From Thermoanaerobaculia bacterium (GTDB lineage: Bacteria; Acidobacteriota; Thermoanaerobaculia; Gp7-AA8), in the NCBI GenBank assembly GCA_036522835.1, contig DATDFB010000057.1, positions 3,906-67,905 of the forward strand: a stretch of 64,000 nt of DNA. Reading direction: 5' to 3'. Position 1 is the first letter of the stretch. Every line of letters starts with the position of its first letter. The notes below the pieces were generated by a model. That model was given only the letters and a program-made list of their open reading frames with translations. It was not told the DNA's origin and did no database searches. Below are positions 3,309 to 56,715 of this stretch, in pieces. Both the position numbers and the translations under genes were made by a program.

Positions 3309-4788
3309 CCGTCACCTTCGTCACGCCGAACGGCAGCAGCATCGCGAAGTTCGGCGCGACGGCGTAGAACGGGCGGAGGTCGATCGGATTGCCGAGGAGC
3401 GCCGTGCCCGCTTTCGCACAGAGATCGCCCGTGCGGAGCATGTTCTCGATCGGGCGCTTCACGCGCATGGTCGGATAGAGCGCGTTCACCTCGTCGCGCA
3501 GGTTGCCTTGCGGCTTCTCTTTGTACTCCTTCGTGAACGACGTGACGGCGAGCTGATTGCCTTTCAGCTCCGCCTGCCAGGCCACGTGCGGCGCGCCCTC
3601 GGACGGGAAGCCGTCGTACCCGCCGTGGAAGAGAACCCCCGCCGGCGTCACCTCGGCGGCCATGTCGATGAGGTGTCCGCACGCGGCGGCGTTGACGTAT
3701 GACACATCCTGCCTGGCGATGCGATTCTGCGCGTCGTAGGTGTAGCGCGACGTGACGGCCTGCCCGTCGAGCACGAGCTCCTCGCGGTCGAGCAGCCACG
3801 CCTCGCCCGCTTTGTGCGCTCGGAAGTCGAGGAGGCCGGCGCGCTCGAGGTAGTCGGCGCCCTGCACGAGGCCCGGCCCGCTCAGGATCTCGCCGTCGTA
3901 CGTCCACCCCTCGCGCTTGCGCGCGTCCTGGATCTGCTTCTGCTTCACCGGCGTGTAGCGAAGGTCGTCGAACGGCACGCACGACAGCGTCTCGTTTCTG
4001 GCGACGCGGTCGTCGGCGTAGAACGACGTGCGCGTCGCGCCGTCGCTGCACGCGCGCGCATTCGCGTACGGCCCGTGCCAGCAGCGCGGGCACCACATCG
4101 CCCCCGTGGGGAGGCGGAGGCCGCAGAACGAGCAGACGATCTTCGTCTTCATGTCGTCGATCTCGCTCTCGAGCGCGAGGATGTGCGGCTCGATGTCCGC
4201 CTTTGACGCGGCGTCGAGGCCGGCGTAGCGGTGGAAGCGCTCCGCGGCCGTCGCCAAGTCGCCGCGCTTCTCGAAGATCACCGCCTCGTTGTAGACCGGC
4301 GCCGGGTCGTTCGGCCGCTTCTGCTCCGCGTCCTGAAAGAGCTTGAGCGCGGCGTCGTAGTCGCCCTTTTGGTAGAGGAAGCGGCCGCGCGTGAAGATCT
4401 CCGTGTACTCGTCCTCGGCCTGTTTCTTCTTCTGCAGCTCGCGCTGGAAGTCGAGCTCGAGCTGGAGCTTGGCGAGGTTCTCCTTTTCCGGTCCGGCCGG
4501 GTAGAGCTGGTTGTAGCGGTCGACTTTCTGCTGGGCCTCGGAGACGCGCCCGGCCTTGGCGAGCGTGAGGGCCATGTCGTACAGCACGCCGGCGACGTCG
4601 GGCTGCAACTGATCGGCCTTCGCGAACTGCGCGTAGGCCGCGGTGTAGTCCTTCATCGAATAGAACTTCTGGCCGAAGAAGACGGCCTTGGTGAACTCGT
4701 CCTCCGGCTGCTGCGCAAGACCGAATGCAGAATGCAGGATGCAGAATGCAGAAACGAGCAGCACCGCTCGCCATTCTGCATTTTGCAT
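3289..4788 (-). CDS. TPR-repeat protein with CxxC zinc-ribbon (MWCPRCW) and C-terminal domain; start uncertain
   Basis: Downstream part of track ORF 3289..6636. TPR units (KAVFFGQKFYSMKDYTAAYAQFAKADQLQP...); putative start MQNAEWRAVLLVSAFCILHSAFG at 4788 is encoded by repeat element 4723-4804; alternative start 4656 would truncate a TPR. Confidence 0.55.
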   Translation of the reverse strand: MQNAEWRAVLLVSAFCILHSAFGLAQQPEDEFTKAVFFGQKFYSMKDYTAAYAQFAKADQLQPDVAGVLYDMALTLAKAGRVSEAQQKVDRYNQLYPAGPEKENLAKLQLELDFQRELQKKKQAEDEYTEIFTRGRFLYQKGDYDAALKLFQDAEQKRPNDPAPVYNEAVIFEKRGDLATAAERFHRYAGLDAASKADIEPHILALESEIDDMKTKIVCSFCGLRLPTGAMWCPRCWHGPYANARACSDGATRTSFYADDRVARNETLSCVPFDDLRYTPVKQKQIQDARKREGWTYDGEILSGPGLVQGADYLERAGLLDFRAHKAGEAWLLDREELVLDGQAVTSRYTYDAQNRIARQDVSYVNAAACGHLIDMAAEVTPAGVLFHGGYDGFPSEGAPHVAWQAELKGNQLAVTSFTKEYKEKPQGNLRDEVNALYPTMRVKRPIENMLRTGDLCAKAGTALLGNPIDLRPFYAVAPNFAMLLPFGVTKVTVTTPAK

Positions 4789-4804
4789 TCTGCATTCTGC
4801 ATTC
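4723..4804. repeat. palindromic element, family 1 ((GCAGAAT)n heptamer arms), copy 1
   Basis: gaatgcagaatgcaggatgcagaatgcagaaa ...loop... ttctgcattttgcattctgcattctgcattc; diverged relative of copies at 16334-16425 and 19818-19925. Confidence 0.7.
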
Positions 4805-5915
4805 ATTGCAGCAGCGCCTCCACCACCCCGCCCACCCAATCGTCGATCACCGGCGACGTTGCCAGATACGAGTAGAGTGCGTGGCGCTTCTGCTCCGACG
4901 GCGCGCTCGGGTTGCGCAGCACGCCCGCAGGATCGGGCATCAGGTCGACCACGACGTCGCGCGCGTCGCGCGGCGCCCAGTGCGAGGGCATGTCGCTGCC
5001 GAAGAGCTTCGACACGAGCGCAAGGCGGTCGCTTTCGCCGTGCGCGGCGCGCGCGGCGGCGGCGAGGCGGCCCTTCGAGCTCTCGATGAGCATGCGAAGA
5101 TTGGATAGCACCTGCAGCCGGCGCGTGCAGGCCTCGAGGATCTTGACGTCGGAGAGGGCCGTGCTGGCGGCGAGGATCTTCTGGATGCGGTCGGTCTCGA
5201 CGGAGATGAACGCGTCGGCCGGATCGTCGGCAGGGGGCGCCGGCTCGTCGACCTTCACCTCCGGCGTGGCCGGCGTGGCCACCGGCGCGGGCGGCATGGC
5301 CGGCGTCGGCACGATCTCGGCGAGCGGCAGATCGGAGATGGCCGGCGCATCGCCGATCTCGCTCTTCGGCATGCGCAGATCGGCCGGCTCGTTGGCGATC
5401 GCCGCCGGCGGCGGAGCGGGCGGCAGCGGCACGAGCTTCGCCGCACCGAACGGCGAGCCCGCCGGCGCGGCGGGGTCGCGCATCAAATCCGAATCCGTCG
5501 GCACTTCGGCGTCCATCAGCCGCTCGCGCACGCGCAGCCGCGTGTCGCCTGCCTGGCGCAGTTGAGCGTTGCGGGCCACGTCGTTGAGGTACGTCGCGCT
5601 CATGTCGCAGTGGCAGGGGCCGAAGTTGTCGGGCAGGTAGCGCTTGTCGTTGCGCTGGCGGTAGAAGTCGACGACCGCGGCGTTGTGGCGCATGGCCGCG
5701 TCGCGGGCGCGCTCGCAGGCGGCCTGCGAGGCGAACTGGTTGATGCCCGAAAACTCGTTGAAGCCGCGTAGTTCCGGGTTGTACATCTGCACGTGGTAGT
5801 GGAAGACGTCGCAGTGCGCCGGGGGCGTCGCAGAAGGCGGGCAGAGCAGCGCCTGCCCGAGGGCCGAGCCCGCCGTCACCGCCGCCACGAGAAAAACGCT
5901 TACGCGAAGCCGCAT
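4803..5915 (-). CDS. hypothetical secreted Pro/Ala-rich protein
   Basis: Start refined to MRLRVSVFLVAAVTAGSALGQA (signal peptide); Cys-rich N-domain, PAPPPAA.. linker, C-terminal domain. The 18 upstream residues of the track ORF are translation of repeat 5916-5975. Confidence 0.5.
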   Translation of the reverse strand: MRLRVSVFLVAAVTAGSALGQALLCPPSATPPAHCDVFHYHVQMYNPELRGFNEFSGINQFASQAACERARDAAMRHNAAVVDFYRQRNDKRYLPDNFGPCHCDMSATYLNDVARNAQLRQAGDTRLRVRERLMDAEVPTDSDLMRDPAAPAGSPFGAAKLVPLPPAPPPAAIANEPADLRMPKSEIGDAPAISDLPLAEIVPTPAMPPAPVATPATPEVKVDEPAPPADDPADAFISVETDRIQKILAASTALSDVKILEACTRRLQVLSNLRMLIESSKGRLAAAARAAHGESDRLALVSKLFGSDMPSHWAPRDARDVVVDLMPDPAGVLRNPSAPSEQKRHALYSYLATSPVIDDWVGGVVEALLQ

Positions 5916-5975
5916 GTGGAGCGCGCCGGCCATGCCGGCGCCGTAAGAGCGGCGGCATGGCCGCCGCACTCCACA
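5916..5975. repeat. double-hairpin GC-rich repeat, family 3 (TGTGGAG-[GCGCCGGCCATGCCGGCGC]-[GCGGCGGCATGGCCGCCGC]-CACTCCACA)
   Basis: Two internal hairpins inside outer inverted repeat; immediately 5' of start codon of 4803..5915. Confidence 0.65.
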
Positions 5976-16309: not shown

Positions 16310-16333
16310 GGCGCGTTACGCCCGCATACCACG

Positions 16334-16425
16334 GAAACTTAGAACGCAGAATGCGAATGCAGAATGAAGAAAGCTTCGCCGGCGATTTCTCAATTCTGCA
16401 TTCGCATTCTGCGTTCTGAATTTCC
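16334..16425. repeat. palindromic element, family 1, copy 2
   Basis: gaaacttagaacgcagaatgcgaatgcagaatgaagaaa ... tctcaattctgcattcgcattctgcgttctgaatttcc; near-identical to 19818-19925. Confidence 0.8.
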
Positions 16426-16446
16426 GTGGGCCGAAAGCAGGCGAGC

Positions 16447-16717: not shown

Positions 16718-17776
16718 ATGCGAGTCCTGCACCTCGCCGCCGGAAACCGCTGGACCGGAGCCGCCGCGCCGGCGTTCGCCGAGGTGGCGGCGCTGCGCGA
16801 GGCGGGAGTCGATGCGCACTACGCCTACGTCGGCGGCTACAAGCTCGAGCAGAAGCTCGCCCACGTCGGCTTCGCCCACCCCGCGATCGCCAAGGCGCAG
16901 AATCCGCTGTCGTTCCTGCGCACAGCCACGAGGCTCGAGCACCTCATCGACCACCACGGCTTCGACGTCGTGCACGCGCACCTCACCTACGATCACGTGC
17001 TGGCGCGGTTCATCGCCAAGCGGGAGAAGGTGCGGATCGTGCGGACGTTCCACTCCCGGCGGGTGATCCGCGGCGACGTCTTCACGCGGGCGCTCGTCCG
17101 GCGCACCGACGCGATTTGCGTGATCAACGACGCGCTCGCCGAGGCGGCGCCGATCCGCGGCCGTTTCGCGCTCTACACACCGCCGCCGCTCGACACGCGG
17201 CAATTCACGCCCGAGGGGCCGGACTTGCGCGGGGCCTACGGCGTCGAGGGCGATGCGCTGCTCCTCGTCGCCATCGGCAAGCTCGATCCCGCGCGCGGCT
17301 TCGAGGACGTGCTGCGGACGTACGCACTGGTACGGCAGGCCATCGCCACGGCGCGGCTGATGATCATCGGCCACGGCCCGCACCGCCCGGCGCTCGAAGC
17401 GCTGGCGAGCTCGCTGCAAATCGAGCCGATCTGGGCCGGTTATCACGAGGACGATCTCGCCGAGCACTACCGCGCCGCCGACGTGCTGCTCTTCACCGCG
17501 CGCGGCTCCGACGAGGGCCACCGCGCCGTGATCGAGGCGATGGGCTGCGGCGTCGTGCCGGCGACGTATCGCCTCGACGGCATGCCCGCGATCCTCGGCG
17601 AGCTCGGCGCGGAGTCGCTGGCGGCGTCGCCGGCGCCGCAGGCGCTGGCCGAGCGCGTGATCGCCATCGCCCAAGGCGATCTCGCCGCATCGCGCCGCGC
17701 GGCGTTCGCACGGTCGGCGGAGTTTTCGTACGGGAAGGCCGCGGAGCGGCTGATGAAGCTGTACGAGTCGCTCTAA
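16718..17776 (+). CDS. glycosyltransferase family 4 (GT-B)
   Basis: Start refined to MRVLHLAAGNRWTGAA; C-terminal EG.. VIEAMGCGVVPA motif region; upstream 66 residues of track ORF are antisense to Trm112 gene. Confidence 0.8.
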   Translation: MRVLHLAAGNRWTGAAAPAFAEVAALREAGVDAHYAYVGGYKLEQKLAHVGFAHPAIAKAQNPLSFLRTATRLEHLIDHHGFDVVHAHLTYDHVLARFIAKREKVRIVRTFHSRRVIRGDVFTRALVRRTDAICVINDALAEAAPIRGRFALYTPPPLDTRQFTPEGPDLRGAYGVEGDALLLVAIGKLDPARGFEDVLRTYALVRQAIATARLMIIGHGPHRPALEALASSLQIEPIWAGYHEDDLAEHYRAADVLLFTARGSDEGHRAVIEAMGCGVVPATYRLDGMPAILGELGAESLAASPAPQALAERVIAIAQGDLAASRRAAFARSAEFSYGKAAERLMKLYESL

Positions 17777-30456: not shown

Positions 30457-32157
30457 ATGCGCTGGAGCCAGTCCTTCATTCACACCCTGCGCGAAGTTCC
30501 GGCCGACGCGGACGTCGTCAGCCAGAGACTGATGATGCGCGCCGGCATGATCCGCAAAGTAGCCGCCGGAATTTACACCTATCTCCCCCTCGGCCTCCGT
30601 TCGATGCAGAAGCTCGAGGCCATCATCCGCGAGGAGATGAACCGCGCCGGCGCGGTGGAGCTCCTCGGGCCGACCATCCACCCGGGCGAGTTGTGGATGG
30701 AGTCGGGACGCTGGCAGCGCTACGGCAAGGAGCTCCTGCGCATCAAAGACCGCCACGAGCGCGACTTCGTCTACGGCCCCACGGCCGAGGAGGTCGTGAC
30801 CGACGCCGTGCGGAACACGCTCAACTCCTATCGACAGCTCCCGATCAACCTCTATCAGATCCAGACCAAGTTTCGCGACGAAGTGCGGCCCCGCTTCGGC
30901 CTCATGCGCGGGCGCGAGTTCACCATGAAGGACGCGTACTCCTTCCACGCCACGGCATCGTCGCTCGACGAGACGTACGAGAAGATGCGCGACGCCTACA
31001 GCGCCATCTTCCGCCGCTGCGCGCTCGACCACGTGCCGGTCGAGGCCGACACCGGCAACATCGGCGGCAGCGCCTCGCACGAGTTCATGGTGCTGGCGCA
31101 GTCGGGCGAGGACGCGGTCGTGTCGTGCCCCAACTGCCGCTACGGCGCGAACGTGGAGAAGGCCACGTCGAAGTTCTTCCTCGACGAGCCGGAGCCCGCG
31201 CCGATGGAAGCGATGGCCGAATTGCACACGCCGGGAACGCAGACGATCGACGACGTCGGCCGCTTCCTCGGCAAGCCGACCTCGCAGCTCGTCAAGACCC
31301 TCGTCTTCGACACCGACAAAGGGTGTCTGATGGTCCTCGTGCGCGGCGACCGCGAGGGGAACGAGGTCAAGATCAAGAACGTCTCCGGCGCCGAGTGGAT
31401 GGAGATGATGCCCGACGCGCGCTTCGAGGAGGCCACGGGCGGCCCGGTCGGCTATTGCGGTCCGGTCGGGACGAAGGCGGCACGCGTGATCGCCGACGTA
31501 TCGCTCAAAGGCCACGTCAACTGGATCGTCGGTGGCAATAAGAAGGACTACCACCTCGGCGGCGCGAATCCCGGCCGCGACTTCCCCGAGCCGGAGTACG
31601 CCGACGTCACGACCGTCTTCGCCGGCGATCCCTGTCCGCGCTGCGGCACGCCGCTGGAGATCAACCGCGGCATCGAGGTCGGCCATGTGTTCAAGCTCGG
31701 AACGAAGTACTCCGAGCCGATGGGCTGCACGTTCCTCGATGAGAACGGCGAGCGCAAGCCGATGATCATGGGCTGCTACGGCTTGGGCGTCGGCCGCACG
31801 GTCGCCGCCGCGGTGGAGCAGAGCCACGACGACGACGGCATCATCTGGCCGATCCCGATCGCGCCGTACACCGTCGTCGTGACCGCGCTCGGCAAAGAGG
31901 AGAGCGTGCGCGCGACGGCCGAGGAGGTCTACGCGAAGCTCCTGGCCGCCGGCGTCGACGTGCTCTTCGACGACCGCGACGAGCGCCCCGGCGTGAAGTT
32001 CAAGGACGCGGATCTGATCGGTTTTCCGCTGCGCATCGCCGTCGGCGCGAAGAGCCTGGCGAACGGCGTCATCGAGTGGAGCTGGCGCAAGGATCGCGCG
32101 AAGCAGCTCGGGCCGCCGGGCGAGGTGGTGGAGACGGTCATAACGGCCGCTCGGTAG
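30457..32157 (+). CDS. proS: proline--tRNA ligase (bacterial type with editing domain)
   Basis: 566 aa; class II motifs, FRDE...RPRFGLMRGREFTMKDAYSFH; stop TAG lies in repeat 32153-32209. Confidence 0.95.
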   Translation: MRWSQSFIHTLREVPADADVVSQRLMMRAGMIRKVAAGIYTYLPLGLRSMQKLEAIIREEMNRAGAVELLGPTIHPGELWMESGRWQRYGKELLRIKDRHERDFVYGPTAEEVVTDAVRNTLNSYRQLPINLYQIQTKFRDEVRPRFGLMRGREFTMKDAYSFHATASSLDETYEKMRDAYSAIFRRCALDHVPVEADTGNIGGSASHEFMVLAQSGEDAVVSCPNCRYGANVEKATSKFFLDEPEPAPMEAMAELHTPGTQTIDDVGRFLGKPTSQLVKTLVFDTDKGCLMVLVRGDREGNEVKIKNVSGAEWMEMMPDARFEEATGGPVGYCGPVGTKAARVIADVSLKGHVNWIVGGNKKDYHLGGANPGRDFPEPEYADVTTVFAGDPCPRCGTPLEINRGIEVGHVFKLGTKYSEPMGCTFLDENGERKPMIMGCYGLGVGRTVAAAVEQSHDDDGIIWPIPIAPYTVVVTALGKEESVRATAEEVYAKLLAAGVDVLFDDRDERPGVKFKDADLIGFPLRIAVGAKSLANGVIEWSWRKDRAKQLGPPGEVVETVITAAR

Positions 32158-32209
32158 GGGCGCACGGCGTGCGCCCTCAGCGTCCGGGCGCACGCCGTGC
32201 GCCCCTACC
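32153..32209. repeat. double-hairpin GC repeat, family 4 (GGTAGGGG-[GCGCACGGCGTGCGC]-x-[GCGCACGCCGTGCGC]-CCCCTACC)
   Basis: Two hairpins within outer inverted repeat; same architecture as family 3. Confidence 0.7.
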
Positions 32210-37332: not shown

Positions 37333-39167
37333 TCCGCCGCACGCTGCTGCTCTTCGCCGCCAATCTCGTGCTCTTCACGCTGCTGCGGGTGGCGTTTCTC
37401 CTGGTCTTCGGCCATCGCCTGGCCGGGAACGATCTTCTGCGCGCCTTTTACCTCGGATTGAAATTCGACGCGCGGCTGGCGGCGCTGGTCGTCGCGCCGA
37501 TCGCGATTTTCGGCACGCGCCGCGCGGCGACGATCGTCTTCGCAATCTTCGAGCTCATCGTCCTCCTCTGCTACGCCATCGACTTCGGCTCGTACGCGTA
37601 CGTCCACCAGCGCGTGAACGCCAGCGAGCTGGAGTTCCTCCGCAATCCGCTGATCTCGCTGCACATGGTGTGGGAGTCGTACCACGTCGTCTGGTTCGGG
37701 CTGGGCATCCTGCTGTTCCTCGCGGCGCTCGTGTTCGCGCTGCGCGGCGGCGACGTGTCATCCCGAGCGCAGCGAGGGATCCCCCGCGACCCGCTCTGGC
37801 AGCGCATCGCCCTCATCGTCTTTCTTCTGGCGTGCATCTACGGCAAGGCCTCGCGCTACCCGCTGCGCTGGAGCGACGCCTACGTCGCACGCGATCCCTT
37901 CGCCGCGGAGCTCGCGCTCAACCCGCCGCAGTTCCTCTTCGAGACGATGCGCGAGGAGCCGGTGAAGCTCGACGAGAACCGCGTGCGGCGGCTCTACCCG
38001 GTCATGGCCGCGTATGCCGGAGTCGATCGCCCCGATCCGAAATCGCTGTCGCTGGCGCGCACGCCGAGGCTCTTTCCGCAGACCACCGGGGCGCCCAACG
38101 TCGTCGTCATCCAGCTCGAGTCCTTCGCGGCGTTCAAGAGCGGCGCGTTCGGCAACCGCGCCAACGGCTGCCCGAACGTCGACCGCCTGGCGCGCGAGGG
38201 GCTGCTCTTCACGAACTACTACTCCCCCTCGGAGAAGACCGCGCGCGCGCTCTATGCCGCCGTCTTCGGCATGGCCGACGTGAGCCCGTGGCAGGCCGCC
38301 GGCAACAACCCCATGGCGGTCGACCAGTACACGATCATCAACGCCTTCCGCGGCTACGAGAAGTATTTCTTCCTCGGCGGGAGCGCGAACTGGTCGAACA
38401 TCCGCGGGATGCTCGCGCACAATATCGACGGACTGAAGATCTTCGAGGAAGGCTCGTACAAAGCGAAGCCGGTCGACGTCTGGGGCGTGACGGACGAAGA
38501 GGTGTTCCTCACGGCGAGCGACGAGCTCTCGAAACAGCGCAAGCCATTCTTCGCGCTGATCCTGACCTCCGGCAATCACCGCCCCTACACCGTGCCGAAG
38601 GAGACGCACGGCTACGCGCGCGAGATCCTGTCGAACGAAGACCTGCGCGCGAACGGCTTCGAGTCGAACGACGAGTACAACTCCTTCCGCTACCTCGACC
38701 ACGCCGTCGGCCTCTTTTTCGAGAAGGCCGAGAAGGAGCCGTGGTTCAAGAACACCGTCTTTGTTCTCTACGGCGACCACGGCACGCGCACCGGCGCGCC
38801 CGGCGAAGCGCTCACGCTCGGCGACCTCTCGCTCATCGTCTACCACGTGCCGATGATCATCTACGCGCCCGGCTTCAACGTGCCGCCGCGCAGGATCGAC
38901 ATCGCCGCGAGCCACATGGACCTGATGCCGACGATCGCGAGCTTTTGCGGAGTGCCGTACCGCAATCAGACGCTGGGCATCGATCTCTTCGATCCGAATT
39001 CCGCCGGACACTCGGCAGCGTTCGTTTTTACAACGTTTCGCCAGCCGCCCACCCTCGGCCTGGTCGAAGGCGCGCGCTACACGATCGTAAAATCGGGGAC
39101 GAGCAACACCCTTCCGGAAGCGTTTTATGAGTTTTCTCGTTGGCTGATGCTGCACAATAAACCGTAA
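37329..39167 (+). CDS. LTA-synthase/phosphoglycerol-transferase family sulfatase-like membrane protein
   Basis: ATGA-coupled; N-terminal 5 TM + extracytoplasmic alkaline-phosphatase-superfamily domain (VVVIQLESF...YGDHG). Confidence 0.78.
   Translation: MIRRTLLLFAANLVLFTLLRVAFLLVFGHRLAGNDLLRAFYLGLKFDARLAALVVAPIAIFGTRRAATIVFAIFELIVLLCYAIDFGSYAYVHQRVNASELEFLRNPLISLHMVWESYHVVWFGLGILLFLAALVFALRGGDVSSRAQRGIPRDPLWQRIALIVFLLACIYGKASRYPLRWSDAYVARDPFAAELALNPPQFLFETMREEPVKLDENRVRRLYPVMAAYAGVDRPDPKSLSLARTPRLFPQTTGAPNVVVIQLESFAAFKSGAFGNRANGCPNVDRLAREGLLFTNYYSPSEKTARALYAAVFGMADVSPWQAAGNNPMAVDQYTIINAFRGYEKYFFLGGSANWSNIRGMLAHNIDGLKIFEEGSYKAKPVDVWGVTDEEVFLTASDELSKQRKPFFALILTSGNHRPYTVPKETHGYAREILSNEDLRANGFESNDEYNSFRYLDHAVGLFFEKAEKEPWFKNTVFVLYGDHGTRTGAPGEALTLGDLSLIVYHVPMIIYAPGFNVPPRRIDIAASHMDLMPTIASFCGVPYRNQTLGIDLFDPNSAGHSAAFVFTTFRQPPTLGLVEGARYTIVKSGTSNTLPEAFYEFSRWLMLHNKP
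37757..37787. repeat. half copy of family 2 element inside LtaS-like CDS
   Basis: gtcatcccgagcgcagcgagggatccccc encodes VSSRAQRGIP in frame in a loop of the TM domain. Confidence 0.55.
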
Positions 39168-39207: not shown

Positions 39208-40460
39208 TGCCTGAAACTGCCATCGCCGTAGGACTTCTCCTGCCGGACACATCGCGTACCGTCGCCGACGAGCACCTCGACGAGCTCGAGAAACTGATCG
39301 AGACGGCCGGCGGCAACGTCGTCGCCAAAATGCTGGCCCGCCGCCCCGCGCCCGATCCCGCCACCTTCGTCGGCAAGGGGAAGGCGGAAGAGATCAAGGT
39401 CATCGCCGAGAATCACGGCGCGCAGCTCGTGGTCTTCGACGACGACTTGAGCCCCGCGCAGGTGCGCAACCTCGAGAAGATCACGGGCGTCAAGGTCATC
39501 GACCGCAGCGGCCTCATTCTCGACATCTTCGCCGGCCGCGCGCGCAGCCGCGAGGCGCGCACGCAGGTGGAGCTGGCGCAGCTCGAGTACACGCTGCCGC
39601 GCCTCACCCGCGCCTGGACGCACCTGGAGCGGCAGGCCGGCGGCATCGGCACGCGCGGCGTCGGCGAGACGCAGATCGAGCTCGACCGCCGCATCATCCG
39701 CAACCGCATCGCCCACCTCAAAGAAGAGCTGCGCAAGATCGAGCGGACGCGCGTCACGCAGCGCAAGGCGCGCAGCAGCGCCTTCACCGTCGCGCTGGTC
39801 GGCTACACGAATGCCGGGAAGTCGACGCTCTTCAACCAGCTCACGCGCGGCGGCGCCGAGGCGGTCGACAAGCTGTTCGCCACGCTCGATGCGAAGTCGC
39901 AGCGCGCCGCGTTCGAGATGCCGCGCGAGACCGTCGTCATCGACACCGTCGGCTTCATCCGCAAGCTGCCGCACAACCTCGTGGCCTCGTTCCGCTCGAC
40001 GATGGAGGAGGCGGTCGCCGCCGACCTCGTGCTGCACGTCATCGATGTGAGCCATCCACAGTACGAAGAGCAGCGCACCGTCGCCGAGGAAGTGTTGAAA
40101 GAGCTCGGCGTGCCGGCGGAGCGGGTCATGGAGGTCTACAACAAAGTCGACCGCGCCGAGACCATGATCCGCCGCAAGGGCGCCGTCGGCGTGTCCGCGC
40201 TGACGGGGCGGAACATCGACAAGCTGGTCGATGCCATCCGGCAGCGCGAGCTCGAAGGCGGCGAGGTCGTGCAGCTCGAGATCCCGCACTCCGAGCCGAA
40301 GCTCCTGGCGGAGCTGCACGAGACCGCGGTGGTGTACGCGCAGACGGCATCCGACGACATCACGGCCGTCACGGCGTGGCTGCCGTTCGAGGTCCTGCCG
40401 CGATTCACCGAGTACCGGCGGCCCGACGTGGCCGCCGCCGCGCGCGCGACGCTCAGGTGA
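39207..40460 (+). CDS. hflX: GTPase HflX
   Basis: 417 aa; HflX N-domain + G-domain (GYTNAGKSTLFN, DTVGF, NKVD). Confidence 0.9.
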   Translation: MPETAIAVGLLLPDTSRTVADEHLDELEKLIETAGGNVVAKMLARRPAPDPATFVGKGKAEEIKVIAENHGAQLVVFDDDLSPAQVRNLEKITGVKVIDRSGLILDIFAGRARSREARTQVELAQLEYTLPRLTRAWTHLERQAGGIGTRGVGETQIELDRRIIRNRIAHLKEELRKIERTRVTQRKARSSAFTVALVGYTNAGKSTLFNQLTRGGAEAVDKLFATLDAKSQRAAFEMPRETVVIDTVGFIRKLPHNLVASFRSTMEEAVAADLVLHVIDVSHPQYEEQRTVAEEVLKELGVPAERVMEVYNKVDRAETMIRRKGAVGVSALTGRNIDKLVDAIRQRELEGGEVVQLEIPHSEPKLLAELHETAVVYAQTASDDITAVTAWLPFEVLPRFTEYRRPDVAAAARATLR

Positions 40461-41532
40461 TCGTGCGCAAGCGGTCGTTGATGACGCGCGTCCGCCCGCC
40501 GGCGTTGATGCGCAGCTCGAGACCCGGCTTGCCGTCCAGATCGGACGCGCCGAGGTACGTCCATGCCGCGCCGGCCGTGTAGGTGAAGCTCGATCCGTCG
40601 GCATCGTGGTAGATGTCGATGGCGCTTCCCACGTTGAACACGAGATCGTTGCCGGGCCGCCCATCGGTGTCGACGGCGTCGACCAGCGTCCACCCTTTCG
40701 TGCTGACGAGGTGGCTCGTCACGGTGCCGCCGGCGTCGTGAATGATGCGAACGGCCGATCCGATGTTGAGAATCAGCTCCGCGCCCGCCTTGCCGTCGAG
40801 ATCGGCGGCGCGCATGAACTTCCACGAGCTGCCGCCGTCGTAGTCCCTCGACGCGCCCGTGCCGGCGTGAACGATCCGGATTTTGGAGCCGAGATTCAGC
40901 ACCAACTCCGCGCCCGGCAGTCCGTCGAGCTCCGCCGAGGTGACCAACGCCCACGCCGGCCCGAGAGCCGGAAAATCGACGACGCTGTTGCTGCCGTCGC
41001 GGATCACGCGGAGCGTCGATCCGAGATTCACCGCCAGCTCGGCGCCCGGCTTCCCGTCGAGCTCCGCGATCGTGACGACCGTCCAGACCGGGCCGAGATT
41101 CGCAGTATCGCTCGAGGTGCCGGCCGCGTCGTGAATGATGCGGATCGTCGAGCCGAGGTTCAGCACGAGCTCCGCGCCGGCTTTGCCGTCGGTATCCACC
41201 GTGGCGATCAGCTTCCACGCCGCCGCCGCGTTGTAGTCCTGCATCTTGCCGGTCGCGTCGCGGATCACGCGGATCTTCGCGCCGAGATTGAGCACGAGCT
41301 CCAGGCCGGGTCGGCCGTCGAGATCGGCCGCGCCCGCGAAGGCCCACCCGGCGCCGGCGGCGTACGTGTTCGACGTTCCGTTCGCGCGCTGCACGCGGAT
41401 CGTGGCGCCCTCGTTGAAGACCTTCTCGGCCGCACCGTCGCCGTTCGTGTCCCAACTGCCCATCAGGATGCTGCCGGCAGCCATGGCATCCGAGGCGAGG
41501 AGAAAGAGGGTCAGGAGCCGGAGAAACCGCAT
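40453..41532 (-). CDS. secreted FG-GAP-like beta-propeller repeat protein
   Basis: Signal peptide MRFLRLLTLFLLASDAMAAG; nine ~37-aa repeats (ADLDGKPGAELVLNLGSxIRIIHDAxG...). 8-nt convergent overlap with hflX. Confidence 0.6.
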   Translation of the reverse strand: MRFLRLLTLFLLASDAMAAGSILMGSWDTNGDGAAEKVFNEGATIRVQRANGTSNTYAAGAGWAFAGAADLDGRPGLELVLNLGAKIRVIRDATGKMQDYNAAAAWKLIATVDTDGKAGAELVLNLGSTIRIIHDAAGTSSDTANLGPVWTVVTIAELDGKPGAELAVNLGSTLRVIRDGSNSVVDFPALGPAWALVTSAELDGLPGAELVLNLGSKIRIVHAGTGASRDYDGGSSWKFMRAADLDGKAGAELILNIGSAVRIIHDAGGTVTSHLVSTKGWTLVDAVDTDGRPGNDLVFNVGSAIDIYHDADGSSFTYTAGAAWTYLGASDLDGKPGLELRINAGGRTRVINDRLRTIT

Positions 41533-41599
41533 CGAAACTCCTGTCGTTTCGTACAGATGACGTCGCGCGCGGCCCAAACGTGATAGGAATCAGGAAGCG

Positions 41600-42088: not shown

Positions 42089-42873
42089 GCCCGAACCTGA
42101 CCCTTTACGCCGCACTCGGCCTCTACGCCGCCGGCACGCTGATGGCCTTGGCGTCGCTGTTCGGGCGGCGTTTGCAGACGCCGGCGCTGGTGCTGATGCT
42201 GGCCGGGTTCGTCAGCCACACGGTCTGGATCGGGACGATTTGCGTGCGCACGCACCACCCGCCGCTCACGAACCTGCCGGAGATCGCGGCGTTCCTGTCG
42301 TGGACGGTGTTCGTCGTGGAGCTGGTGCTGCTGTTCAAGTACCGCGTGCACGCGGCGTCGTTCTTCGTCTACCCGCTCGTGCTGATGCTCCTGACCGTCT
42401 CGGCCGTCGTGCACGAGCCGTTCGCGCTGGCCGGCCCGACGGCGCAGTCGAAGCTCTTCACGACGCACATCCTCCTCTCGACGGTCGGCGTGGCCGCACT
42501 GCTCATCGGCGTCGCGTTCAATGCGCTGGCCTGGATGCAAGACCGGTCGCTCAAGTCGAAGCACCGCGGGCGGACGTGGGAGTGGATCCCGAGCCTCAAC
42601 GTCTGCAAGACGCTGAGTTACCGGGCGCTGGCCGTCGGCTTCAGCATCTACACGCTCGGGATTCTGACGGGGATTCTCTGGTCCTACCGCACGACTTCGG
42701 AGCTGCTCGACCTGCGCGTCAAGCAGGTCGGCGCGATCGTGGCGTGGGTGCTCTTCGCAACGCTCCTGCAGTCGTACGTCAGCGGCGCGTATCGCGCGCG
42801 GAGGGCCATGGTGATCTCGGCCTGCGCGCTCGTGGCGGTGCTCGTGGCCATTTTGGGGATCCGGCATGTCTGA
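42085..42873 (+). CDS. CcsA-like cytochrome c assembly / HemX-like membrane protein
   Basis: 8 TM, W-rich segment; positioned immediately upstream of hemA as in hemAXCD operons. Confidence 0.65.
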   Translation: MSPNLTLYAALGLYAAGTLMALASLFGRRLQTPALVLMLAGFVSHTVWIGTICVRTHHPPLTNLPEIAAFLSWTVFVVELVLLFKYRVHAASFFVYPLVLMLLTVSAVVHEPFALAGPTAQSKLFTTHILLSTVGVAALLIGVAFNALAWMQDRSLKSKHRGRTWEWIPSLNVCKTLSYRALAVGFSIYTLGILTGILWSYRTTSELLDLRVKQVGAIVAWVLFATLLQSYVSGAYRARRAMVISACALVAVLVAILGIRHV

Positions 42874-43079
42874 GCAGAACGCTCGCACTCTGCCAACGCT
42901 CGGGAGAACGACCGGGAGGCCTCCGGCGGGCGGGCACGGCCCGCAGCGTTTGTTGGCGCGCAAATCATGTTTCCTGCGAAACCCGTACGTTCGGCCGGAG
43001 GCAACCAGCGCTGCGGGCCGCGCCCGCCCGCCGGAGGCCCTTCGTCGTCCCCTGCGTTGGCAGAGTGCGAGCGTTCTGC
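42874..43079. promoter_or_regulatory. 206-nt nested perfect-stem hairpin element filling the hemX-hemA gap
   Basis: Outer 26-bp arms gcagaacgctcgcactctgccaacgc / gcgttggcagagtgcgagcgttctgc; inner arms gggaggcctccggcgggcgggc / gcccgcccgccggaggccc; third stem cggcccgcagcg / cgctgcgggccg. Confidence 0.6.
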
Positions 43080-43092
43080 ACGGGAGGGCGAC

Positions 43093-44355
43093 ATGGCCCT
43101 GATCGCCATCGGCCTCAACCACCGCACTGCCCCCGTGGACGTGCGCGAGCGGCTCAGCGTGGCCGAGTCGAAGCTGCCGGAGTTGATCGCGAGCCTCACG
43201 GCCATGAGCGGCGTCGACGGCGGCGCCATCGTCTCGACCTGCAACCGCGTCGAGACCTACGTCTCCGCCTCGAGCGAAGACATCATCGAAGCGGTCGTCG
43301 ACTGGCTCGCCGAGCGCGCCGGCGCCGACCGGGCCGAGATCGAGAAGCACCTCTACATCCTTCGCCACGGCGACGTGGTCAAGCACCTCTTCCGCGTGGC
43401 CGCGGGGCTCGACTCGATGATTGTCGGCGAGCCGCAGATCCACGGCCAGGTGCGCGCGGCGTTCCTGGAGTCGCAGCGCTGCGGCGCGCTCGACGCACTG
43501 CTGATGCACGTCTTCGAGCAGACCATGCGCGTGGCCAAGAAGATCCGCACCGACACCGGCATCGGCGAGCACGCCGTCTCCGTGCCGTACGCCGCGGTGG
43601 AGCTGGCGAAGAAGATCTTCGGCGAGCTCGACGGCCTGCAGGCGCTGCTCCTCGGCGCGGGCGACATCGGCGAGCTAACGGCGGAGCACCTCGCGGGCTC
43701 GGGTGTGCGCCAGATCTTCGTGGCCAACCGCGCCTACGAGCGCGGCGTGCAGCTCGCCGAGCGCTTCGGCGGCGCGGCCATCCAGTTCAGCGCTGTCGAG
43801 CCGTACCTGGCCACGTGCGACATCGTCATCGCCTCGACCGCAGCGCCGCACTTCGTCATCGAGCGCGGCCAGGTCGCGCGCGCGCTGGAGTCGCGGAAGA
43901 TGAAGAACCTCTTCCTCATCGACCTGAGCGTGCCGCGCAACATCGACCCGGCCATCGCCAAGGTCGAGGGCGCCTATCTCTACAACATCGACGACCTCCA
44001 GCTCGTGGCCGAGTCGAACCGCGAGCTGCGCATGAAGAAGGCCCAGCAGGCGGAGGAGATCGTGGCGCGCGAGGTGGAGTCGTTCCGCCGCCGCATCGCC
44101 GCCATGGACGCGGTGCCGACGATCGTCGAGCTGCAGCAGCGCCTCGAGGAGATCCGCGCCACGGAGCTGGAACGGTGCCTCCGCCGCGTCGGCCCGATCA
44201 CCGCCGAGCAGCGCGAGGCCATCGAGATGATGACCACGCAGATGGTCAACAAGATCCTCCACTACCCGATCCTCCAGCTCAAGGAAGCCGACGAGCCGCA
44301 GGAGCAGCGCGAGTCGCTCCGCAAGACGATTCGAAAGATCTTCGGGCTGCGATGA
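43093..44355 (+). CDS. hemA: glutamyl-tRNA reductase
   Basis: MALIAIGLNHRTAPVDVRERL ... CNRVE ... 420 aa. Confidence 0.92.
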   Translation: MALIAIGLNHRTAPVDVRERLSVAESKLPELIASLTAMSGVDGGAIVSTCNRVETYVSASSEDIIEAVVDWLAERAGADRAEIEKHLYILRHGDVVKHLFRVAAGLDSMIVGEPQIHGQVRAAFLESQRCGALDALLMHVFEQTMRVAKKIRTDTGIGEHAVSVPYAAVELAKKIFGELDGLQALLLGAGDIGELTAEHLAGSGVRQIFVANRAYERGVQLAERFGGAAIQFSAVEPYLATCDIVIASTAAPHFVIERGQVARALESRKMKNLFLIDLSVPRNIDPAIAKVEGAYLYNIDDLQLVAESNRELRMKKAQQAEEIVAREVESFRRRIAAMDAVPTIVELQQRLEEIRATELERCLRRVGPITAEQREAIEMMTTQMVNKILHYPILQLKEADEPQEQRESLRKTIRKIFGLR

Positions 44356-45356
44356 GCGAGACAATCCGCATCGGCACGCGCGGCAGCCAACTCGCGCTCT
44401 GGCAAGCCAACGAAGTGTCGAACCGGCTCAGCGAAATCGGCTACCGGCCGGAGATCGCGGTCATCAAGACGACGGGCGACAAGCGCACCGACGTGCCGCT
44501 GTCGTCGGTCGGCGGCAAGGGCCTCTTCATCAAGGAGCTCGAGGAGGCGCTGGCGCGGCGCGAGATCGATGTGGCCGTGCACTCGCTCAAGGACGTGCCG
44601 TCGCTCGTCCCCGAGCCGTTCGTGCTGGCCGGCTTCCTCGAGCGCGCCGACGCCCGCGACGCCTGGGTGCAGCTCGACGGCACGCGCATCGAGGAGCTGG
44701 CTGCAGGCGCGGTCGTCGGCACGAGCGCGCCGCGGCGGCGCGCGCAACTGCGGCTGCTCTTTCCGTCGCTCACGCTCGAGGAGATGCGCGGCAACGTCGA
44801 CACGCGCATCAATAAACTGCGCGCCGGCTTGTACGACGGCGCGGTGCTGGCGTCGGCCGGACTCATTCGACTCGGCCGTTCCAGCGAGATCACCGCGCAG
44901 TTCGACGTCGACCAGATGGTGCCGGCCGCGGGGCAGGGCATCGTCACGATCGAGTGCAACAAAGACGACGATCGCGCGCGCCAGGCCGCCGCGGCGATCA
45001 ACCACCATCCCAGCGAGGCCGCGGCGCGCGCCGAGCGCGGCGTGCTGCAGAAGTTCGGCGAGGCGCTCGACTGCTACTCCGCCGTGGCCGTGCATGCGAC
45101 GTGGGCCCGTGTCATTCCGCGTCGCGAAGACGGCGAGGAGTCCCGTGCACACGACGACGGCGATGCTCCGTCGGCAGGAGATCCTTCGCCGTCTTCGCGG
45201 CTCGGGATGACACGTCTCAAGATCCGCGCGTTCTTCGGCGAGCTCGAAGGCGAGCGCCATTTGCACGTCACGCGCGAAGGCGACGAGGCCGACGCCGTCG
45301 TGCAGCAAGTCTTCGACGAGCTCGTCGACCGCGGAGCCATGGAGCTGCTCAAGTGA
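44352..45356 (+). CDS. hemC: hydroxymethylbilane synthase (porphobilinogen deaminase), with in-frame repeat insertion
   Basis: IRIGTRGSQLALWQA; 334 aa, ~35 aa longer than typical HemC because of insertion 45111-45213; ATGA-coupled to hemA. Confidence 0.9.
   Translation: MSETIRIGTRGSQLALWQANEVSNRLSEIGYRPEIAVIKTTGDKRTDVPLSSVGGKGLFIKELEEALARREIDVAVHSLKDVPSLVPEPFVLAGFLERADARDAWVQLDGTRIEELAAGAVVGTSAPRRRAQLRLLFPSLTLEEMRGNVDTRINKLRAGLYDGAVLASAGLIRLGRSSEITAQFDVDQMVPAAGQGIVTIECNKDDDRARQAAAAINHHPSEAAARAERGVLQKFGEALDCYSAVAVHATWARVIPRREDGEESRAHDDGDAPSAGDPSPSSRLGMTRLKIRAFFGELEGERHLHVTREGDEADAVVQQVFDELVDRGAMELLK
45111..45213. repeat. family 2 palindromic element, copy C, in frame inside hemC
   Basis: gtcattccgcgtcgcgaagacggcgaggagtccc...ggagatccttcgccgtcttcgcggctcgggatgacac encodes VIPRREDGEESRAHDDGDAPSAGDPSPSSRLGMT. 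Confidence 0.8.
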
Positions 45357-56435: not shown

Positions 56436-56715
56436 TAAGTTGTTAGGTTCGCAGGTTGTTACGTTCTTCACCGATCGAAGAGCGCACGCTTCCGATCGAA
56501 GAACGAACGCTTCAATCGGAATCGTGCGCTCTTCGATTTTAATCGTACGCTCTTCGATCTTTATCGCGCGCTCTTCGATCTTTATCGCGCGCTCTTCGAT
56601 CGGAATCGCGCGCTCTTCGATCGGAATGGCGCACTCTTCGATCGGAATCGTGCGTTCTTCGGTTGCAAGCGTGCGTTCTTCGAAAACAACCTAAGAACTC
56701 AACAACTTAACAACC
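56436..56715. repeat. composite element: ~30-bp terminal inverted repeats flanking two inverted + eight direct 21-bp repeats (CGCGCTCTTCGATCNNAATCG)
   Basis: Direct units at 56525, 56546, 56567, 56588, 56609, 56630, 56651, 56672; inverted units at 56471 and 56489; every unit has TTCGATC. TIRs ttaagttgttaggttcgcaggttgtt / aacaacctaagaactcaacaacttaa. Confidence 0.8.

Follow-up and report, generated by a model that had tools for sequence, protein, structure and literature searches.

A hairpin repeat inserted in frame in hemC of a Thermoanaerobaculia bacterium, with family members in Acidobacteriota and Verrucomicrobiota

The window, that is, the whole stretch of DNA analysed here, comprises 64,000 nucleotides of a Thermoanaerobaculia bacterium (contig DATDFB010000057.1, positions 3,906 to 67,905, assembly GCA_036522835.1). 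It carries hemC, the gene for hydroxymethylbilane synthase (HMBS), inside which a 105-nt hairpin element lies in frame. Below, stretches of other genomes are designated by L numbers and HemC homologue proteins by P numbers. The features of the locus, in window coordinates, are as follows.

44352–45356, plus strand: hemC (hydroxymethylbilane synthase), 334 amino acids, host of the hairpin element
45109–45213, plus strand: inserted hairpin element (GTGTCATTCCG...CGGGATGACAC), 105 nt, imperfect palindrome, codons 253/254–288
45108–45153, plus strand: left arm of the palindrome, 46 nt, from an inverted-repeat search
45169–45214, plus strand: right arm of the palindrome, 46 nt, from the same search

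The hemC product matched Pfam Porphobil_deam (E = 1.9e-77) and HemC chains among the PDB sequences (E of about 1e-57), and it is 100% identical to NCBI HEY6137219.1 from a Thermoanaerobaculia metagenome-assembled genome (MAG). All invariant HemC residues are kept. The gene overlaps both of its neighbours: its 5' end covers the hemA stop, and its 3' end covers the beginning of a cobA/hemD fusion gene. Around the element the translation reads ...CYSAVAVHATWA, then RVIPRREDGEESRAHDDGDAPSAGDPSPSSRLGMT, then RLKIRAFFG..., exactly the peptide and flanks given in an earlier note on this DNA.

That note had described a palindrome of about 103 nt in frame within hemC at 45111–45213. The arm pair, the fold and the open frame bear out the palindrome, and the coordinates were right to about 2 nt. 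The two 46-nt arms are 78% complementary. As RNA, the 126-nt region was folded at −78 kcal/mol, compared with −51.5 ± 4.4 kcal/mol for dinucleotide shuffles (z = −6.0), and none of 200 shuffles folded as well. Over all 101 nt, including the centre, the element has 87% identity to a copy at L074 26–125 in another Acidobacteriota genome, so the palindrome similarity is not confined to fewer than 20 nt. The L074 copy is intergenic, with stops in all frames at its flanks and a signal-peptide gene downstream. The insert peptide gave no match with phmmer among 1.84 billion protein representatives, and no candidate protein had three five-residue words in common with a 41-residue query covering it; the insert peptide is therefore not a detectable protein module. 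No Rfam family matched the element at the gathering threshold, the sole match being a sub-threshold one of a generic long hairpin to a plant microRNA precursor model. As to a terminator role, the hairpin has no T-tail.

Alleles with the element (filled) and without it (empty) were found within the window protein's own 90%-identity cluster. Three members of 334 residues are filled (P0001, P0123 and P0130, the last two with 98–99% amino-acid identity to P0001). The other eight, of 300 residues, are empty; they are 90–93% identical to the window protein and read HAT-(I/M)(N/D)-GH-VKIR. The filled alleles come from the NCBI MAG and from JGI metagenomes 3300044854 and 3300005547, and an assembly artefact is excluded because three independent assemblies hold the insert. 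The 22 matches that follow HEY6137219.1 have 300 residues (306 in one case) and lack exactly the insert segment, with 74–79% identity over the full query and 82–87% with the gap discounted; almost all the remaining homologues listed are also without it. Among the genomic stretches, the element is present in hemC of the window, L006 and L007 and absent from L005 and L001. The net gain over the empty alleles is 102 nt, or 34 amino acids. The alignment of orthologues proposed in the earlier note thus showed presence/absence polymorphism, and the relatives do not share a conserved, non-palindromic segment in its place. Since the filled alleles form a small tight group and the empty ones are many at every distance, the insertion is the derived state. 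A metagenome-wide search with a DNA pattern of hemC flank plus element arm returned only the L007 contig again and no further filled alleles. P0100, a 288-residue HemC with 75% query coverage, was considered as an out-of-frame insertion and rejected, as its C-terminus is divergent and holds no element.

It is barely credible that the segment resembles a repeat by chance and arose through ordinary lineage-specific expansion of a loop or as an assembly chimera. Loop length does vary among relatives (P0015 has a six-residue non-palindromic extension at the same place), but such origins do not account for the full-length identity to the L074 copy, for the more than 119 stretches of other genomes that match a degenerate 28-nt arm pattern exactly, for the fold score of z = −6 or for the same insert in three independent assemblies.

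The junction DNA reads ACG ATC AAC GGG CAC GTC AAG in the empty alleles and ACG TGG GCC C[GTGTCAT...ATGACAC]GT CTC AAG in the filled ones, the brackets enclosing the element. A simple model, the nearest empty allele plus the element, was rejected since it puts TGA in frame; the pre-insertion loop would therefore have differed from the present empty alleles. A loop reading ACG TGG GCA CGT CTC AAG would yield the observed sequence with one synonymous change. Because the flanking codons differ, the exact breakpoint and any duplication cannot be read at hemC and the insertion point is inferred; no target-site duplication was seen there beyond a possible CGT.

The filled alleles have diverged by about 3% in nucleotide sequence. 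Between them, the 299 host codons show 24–27 synonymous and 3–6 non-synonymous differences, and hemC has been under strong purifying selection since the insertion, as the excess of synonymous differences indicates. In the 36 insert codons, 0–1 synonymous differences stand against 1–3 non-synonymous ones (Fisher p for host versus insert codon changes in the three allele pairs 0.016, 0.050 and 0.24). The amino-acid changes in the insert are non-conservative (R/S, E/K and D/G), and in all three diverged alleles it is in frame and free of stops. This pattern suggests that the insert is translated and that its peptide drifts, with roughly neutral evolution, and the purifying selection points to an enzyme that stays functional with the insert in place.

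We regard it as very improbable that the insert goes untranslated, as an intein, an intron or a segment skipped by ribosomal bypassing between CGT codons, or that hemC is a decaying pseudogene. Inteins and self-splicing introns are far larger than this insert of 34 amino acids and 105 nt. The insert begins RVIP and ends LGMT before R, with no Cys/Ser N-terminus and no His-Asn C-terminus, and no Rfam intron family was matched; intein- or intron-like removal, which the earlier note had named as a possible objection, thus left no signature. T4 gene 60-type bypassing uses take-off and landing codons, and the identical CGT codons at 45108–45110 and 45213–45215, on both sides of a strong hairpin, are superficially similar. 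No stop follows the putative take-off codon, however, and the gap is open and in frame in three alleles. A pseudogene would not be expected to show about 25 synonymous against 3–6 non-synonymous differences with all invariant HemC residues present.

A model of the filled HemC was built with AlphaFold2 (AF2) on 120 homologues, with a mean per-residue confidence (predicted local distance difference test, pLDDT) of 90.5 and a predicted TM score (pTM) of 0.86. The HMBS fold is kept, with target-normalised TM values of 0.91–0.92 against the E. coli HMBS structures 1pda/1ypn. Strands 244–254 and 286–296 form the first beta-hairpin of domain 3, and residues 255–285 are coil with pLDDT of about 51–58. 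The model and the alignments agree with the earlier placement of the insert in a short loop of this domain. The cofactor-binding Cys241 lies three residues before the first strand and the insert lies at the opposite strand end; as this is the far end of an 11-residue strand, the insert is predicted to be distal from the catalytic cleft. In the model the complementary termini of the element, which encode ..ARV and MTR.., extend the hairpin by about three residue pairs, and the central 31 or so insert residues would be a disordered loop with many acidic, Pro and Ser residues.

In the 120 closest HemC proteins, internal insertions of more than two amino acids are confined to the turn of this hairpin, and at the DNA level they represent at least four separate events and at least two repeat families. 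In the hemC of L003 (P0033), known from a single short contig, a full copy (77 nt) of the present family is accompanied by a partial arm and by a duplicated part of hemC. L004 (P0032) and L129 (P0031) have a common 108-nt copy of a sister subfamily (GTCATCCCGAGCGTCGAGCGAGGGA...), with an extra 21-nt duplication in L004, and L128 (P0120) carries an unrelated palindrome (GGAGGACAGGCGATCC...GGATTGCCTGTTCTCC); the extension of P0015 lies in this turn too. The inserts of other lineages have no common peptide, and the nucleotide positions of the insertions within the turn differ between events. Because of these differing positions a selection filter is favoured over a sequence-specific hot spot, the turn being the sole tolerated place in an essential enzyme.

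Two further arrangements were observed in HemC homologues. In L003 (1300–1540) the order is partial arm, diverged duplicate of the preceding 21 hemC codons (AVLRKFGAPLDLYSGAGVNAS versus GVLQKFGTLLDCYSAVGVHAV) and complete element, which could be a template-switching footprint left during insertion or a misassembly of the short contig. In P0086 (318 amino acids) the C-terminal tail ...VPRVIPSVSEGPGREGERN resembles an element arm (VIPS = GTCATYCCGAG); here an arm looks to have replaced the normal hemC stop, giving a 3'-end overlap and not an internal insertion.

The insert might instead have been co-opted, the acidic disordered loop or the mRNA hairpin having a selected function (tetrapyrrole flux, mRNA stability). 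In one variant the hairpin of −75 to −79 kcal/mol would act from its position 140 nt upstream of the translationally coupled cobA/hemD start. The overlap of hemC with both neighbouring genes, the survival of the insert and of the hairpin energy in all three alleles through about 3% nucleotide divergence and the inserts of other lineages in the same loop are consistent with such a role. We nevertheless consider it improbable. Synonymous changes in the insert do not outnumber non-synonymous ones, the amino-acid changes are non-conservative, the inserts of other lineages have no peptide in common, close relatives do without the insert, and there is no terminator-like tail or Rfam family match. 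Moreover, a C at 45120 that is specific to the window allele (CCGCG, against CCGAG in L006 and L007) destroys one base pair of the hairpin.

Further members of the repeat family lie elsewhere in the window.

2324–2403, no strand, about 80 nt: family copy A, between purE and a cation-efflux gene
18401–18479, no strand, about 79 nt: family copy B, between cyclase and LigB-RidA genes, both on the minus strand
37755–37787, plus strand: solo arm of the same superfamily (GTGTCATCCCGAGCGCAGCGAGGGATCCCCCGC), lying in frame within the gene for a sulfatase-family membrane protein

The purE stop (TGA, 2333–2335) falls in the left arm of copy A, so that the element encodes the last three PurE residues, V-S-S; the first ATG (2397) of the cation-efflux open reading frame (ORF) downstream falls in the right arm. 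Copy B fills the entire 88-nt spacer within a gene cluster. The earlier note had listed intergenic relatives at 2326–2403 and 18403–18479; they do belong to the same family, but they are wedged into operons and are not free-standing. At the solo arm, KRDAVTAK of L005 corresponds to GDVSSRAQRGIP in the window and L006, giving these two a net four amino acids more.

Alignment of both strands of copies A, B and hemC gave 34 invariant columns, with common termini GTGTCATYCYGAG...CTCGGRATGACAC and an inner GACGGCGARG motif. The window contains 10 occurrences of GAAGACGGCGARG with at most one mismatch, where 0.58 would be expected. Among the matches listed for the 28-nt arm pattern are Verrucomicrobiota (Chthoniobacterales, Udaeobacter and 'Spartobacteria', one match being a chromosome of 3.98 Mb) and Acidobacteriota ('gp7' and Thermoanaerobaculia, the latter with Candidatus Gilichinskyi). 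The loci examined hold about 115–145 family elements of 75–200 nt, with length modes near 90, 120 and 155–170 nt and a G+C content of 62–67%. Conserved arms of the form GTCATYCYGAG-[module]-RAGGRAYC enclose a variable centre, giving GTCATYCYGAG...CTCRGRATGAC overall. The arm modules include CCGCG(A/C)AGACGGC, GCTGGCG(A/C)AGCGCGCC and short GCGNAGC-like units; in our reading each is a potential mini-hairpin. The left and right arms of one element often carry different module types, and solo arms occur. A literature search with a 12-mer from the arms found no description of the repeat, the matches listed concerning unrelated subjects; the family seems to be undescribed and to span two phyla.

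Elements were also tested for ORFs that span them, and these ORFs were then compared with Pfam; this screen detects intact ORFs and is silent on disrupted genes. In-frame copies were found in four other genes. In L034 the copy lies inside the RNase H-like endonuclease domain of UvrC; in L061 it separates the HHH_6 domain of a DnaE2-like polymerase from the OB domain, and in L044 (peptide VIPSAGEGEES...SRLGMT) it separates the HATPase domain of a hybrid histidine kinase from the receiver domain. In L078 it precedes the catalytic domain of an alpha-amylase-family protein, where Pfam support is limited to the part C-terminal to the copy. At the ORF level, L060 adds a PBP-like ORF as a candidate further case. 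The element reading frames that are used differ among the in-gene copies (VIPS.., RHPE.., SSRA..). An adaptation of the family to coding was considered and dropped, since the elements have on average 1.89 open frames of six, against 1.99 in composition-matched shuffles. Because open frames are not in excess, coding compatibility is passive, and in-frame insertion is a habit of the family and not an adaptation.

The flanks and neighbourhoods of the elements were also examined. Position −1 is T in 75% of elements (C in 17%) and position +1 is A in 68%. Outside the conserved termini, complementarity is limited to −1/+1 (T/A) and, weakly, position 2, with nothing further out. Identical flanks of 2, 3, 4 and 5 nt occur in 4, 1, 1 and 0 of 113 elements, respectively, so that the family has no target-site duplications. 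In 1.02 Mb of loci, arm pairs 250–3000 nt apart enclose ordinary genes such as purC and not transposases. A tblastn search of the same 1.02 Mb with IS200 TnpA and E. coli YafM (approximate query sequences) gave one weak match (E = 0.018) to an HUH-like ORF (L045 6352–6975, motif MPDHLHLLM) with no arms beside it. L045 is a Verrucomicrobiota contig with two family elements, and its HUH-like ORF looks degenerate and weakly RAYT/YafM-like, RAYT denoting a repetitive extragenic palindromic (REP)-associated tyrosine transposase. The absence of duplications, the mini-hairpin in each arm and the solo arms lead us to guess at mobilisation by a hairpin-recognising, single-strand HUH/Y1 (RAYT/IS200-like) enzyme, a chemistry that is put forward with low confidence.

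Several known repeat systems resemble the family in part. Rickettsia palindromic elements (RPEs; Ogata et al. 2000, 2002), as presented in those passages of a 2024 review that concern them, have a reported conserved peptide and lie in ORFs in nearly half of the cases (PMC10969869). The likeness is that these passages describe palindromic repeats of about 100–150 nt which are found between genes and in frame in housekeeping genes, with insertions at surface-exposed sites compatible with protein fold and function (PMC10969869). The hemC element likewise is an in-frame palindrome in a gene that is still functional, at a site which the protein structure tolerates. The RPE trait of a conserved ORF and peptide was not found in its family, in which frames vary and open frames are not enriched. 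Only a few percent of the present copies lie in ORFs, the hosts are free-living soil bacteria and the elements have 62–67% G+C, so that the likeness is one of behaviour only. Rickettsia genomes are A+T-rich. By host and composition the hemC element is not an RPE, and a sequence relationship is not expected.

The earlier note had called the insertion unusual outside Rickettsia, which was overstated: intragenic in-frame REP and miniature inverted-repeat transposable element (MITE) insertions are found in many bacteria (PMC3733652; PMC10969869). For bacteria other than Rickettsia, the 2024 review terms it 'not unusual' that intragenic MITEs form in-frame fusions (PMC10969869), and Di Nocera et al. 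(2013) reported that REPs lie inside genes in many species, with DnaE2, uvrA and further repair genes prominent among the hosts, and that some REPs supply stop codons (PMC3733652). GTAG- and CGTC-tagged REPs are, like the present elements, short palindromes that are often inverted dimers, overlap gene ends and sometimes lie inside ORFs; their DnaE2 and Uvr hosts (PMC3733652) have counterparts in the DnaE2-like and UvrC copies found here. No dedicated transposase is known for the CGTC class (PMC3733652). The present arms differ in being longer (about 33–45 nt) and in beginning (T/C)GTCATYCYGAG and not GTAG; the GTAG tag was not found and CGTC is formed only in the roughly 17% of elements with C at −1. 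Di Nocera et al. did not list REP families from Acidobacteria, a phylum that they mention only for its TIRYT transposase genes (PMC3733652).

Where the same source deals with REPIN/RAYT systems, it describes two inverted REP-like units that form one long hairpin, no target-site duplication, and solo units (PMC3733652), as seen here; arms of different subtypes, frequent in the present family, are a further point in common. The present family differs in lacking the GTAG tag, and 1.02 Mb of its loci yielded no RAYT gene flanked by its arms. Classical MITEs (ERIC, Correia/NEMIS, RUP and Nezha) are similarly small, do not code for protein, end in inverted repeats, give transcripts that fold and are occasionally fused in frame with host ORFs (PMC10969869). 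The present family has terminal inverted repeats but not target-site duplications, and the 1.02 Mb searched yielded no related insertion sequence sharing its termini. On this comparison the anatomy of the element fits REP doublets (REPINs) or IS200/IS605-type ends better than DDE-type MITEs.

Taken together, we consider it probable (roughly 0.8) that a non-autonomous hairpin repeat was inserted once in an ancestral hemC and is a neutral or slightly deleterious passenger in a functional enzyme. The single insertion would have occurred in the ancestor of the window, L006 and L007 lineage. By chance its length was a multiple of three and it was stop-free in the hemC frame, so that ribosomes would read through it, and as it landed in the turn of the first beta-hairpin of domain 3, enzyme function would have been kept. 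The peptide, under no detectable selection, would persist as a passenger, and insertions elsewhere or out of frame would kill the essential gene and hence never be seen. Three observations weigh against this account. The hairpin is very stable in all three filled alleles (−75 to −79 kcal/mol), for which either youth or selection could be responsible; the hemC junction is not a simple cut-and-paste, with four flanking codons that differ from all empty alleles; and no transposase or autonomous partner was found in the 1.02 Mb of loci.

A more far-reaching proposal is that the elements form an undescribed, cross-phylum, REPIN-like class which is moved by a hairpin-recognising enzyme and is a regular source of protein-length variation in soil bacteria, having repeatedly given disordered loops to housekeeping enzymes (HemC at least three times, UvrC and the DnaE2-like, histidine kinase, PBP-like and amylase-family proteins), with the HemC turn perhaps a true hot spot. 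We offer it tentatively and doubt that it holds in full.

The window contains other repeats and variable segments. A second, different palindromic element of about 214 nt (42872–43085, termini GCAGAACGCTCGCACTCTGCCAACGC...GCGTTGGCAGAGTGCGAGCGTTCTGC), located between hemA and a gene for cytochrome c assembly, is shared by the window and L005 but not by L006, L007 and L001. This distribution is incongruent with that of the hemC insert (window, L006 and L007), which suggests recombination, independent insertion or excision. An A+T-richer palindromic family with GAATGCAGAATGC motifs occurs at 4723–4804, 16329–16429 and 19814–19928, with 44–45-nt arms that are 89–91% complementary, and is presumably the 'family 1' of the earlier note. 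At least three further short palindromic families, of the TGGAGTGCGGCGGCCATGCCGCCGC, GGTAGGGGCGCACGGCGTGCGCCC and GATCGAAGAGCGCACGCTTC types, were observed, with short palindromes at 5915–5975, 48436–48492 and 51915–51977, at 32153–32209 and 53541–53588, and at 56473–56559. The genome is unusually rich in hairpin repeats.

L005 and L006, otherwise collinear with the window, lack its segment of about 0.9–1.2 kb at 40386–41597; on the minus strand of this segment an ORF (40453–41577) encodes a secreted-looking protein of 374 amino acids built of repeats (..DLDGKPGAELVLNLGS.IRVI.D..). The spacer of about 300 nt after cobA/hemD (46811–47113), an indel hot spot, is 4 nt long in L005 and is replaced in L006 by about 1.3 kb with a minus-strand gene of 414 amino acids. 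A tRNA-Cys(GCA) called by ARAGORN at 17605–17698 (94 nt) was rejected as probably a false positive in G+C-rich sequence: no Rfam tRNA model matched there even at E ≤ 1, and its fold (z = −1.2) is no better than those of shuffles.

Near-identical genomes with and without a 34-residue, repeat-derived loop in the same essential enzyme constitute a natural experiment, and the cost or benefit of selfish DNA in coding sequence is directly measurable with the filled and empty hemC pair. RPE-like colonisation of genes is not limited to reduced intracellular genomes, being found here in large-genome, free-living soil bacteria of two phyla. The recurrent inserts mark the domain 3 turn of hydroxymethylbilane synthase as permissive for loop engineering. 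Such inserts also inflate protein lengths and make spurious low-complexity segments in MAG annotations, and the clustering of orthologues may be confused by filled and empty alleles that have 91–93% identity but differ by 10% in length.

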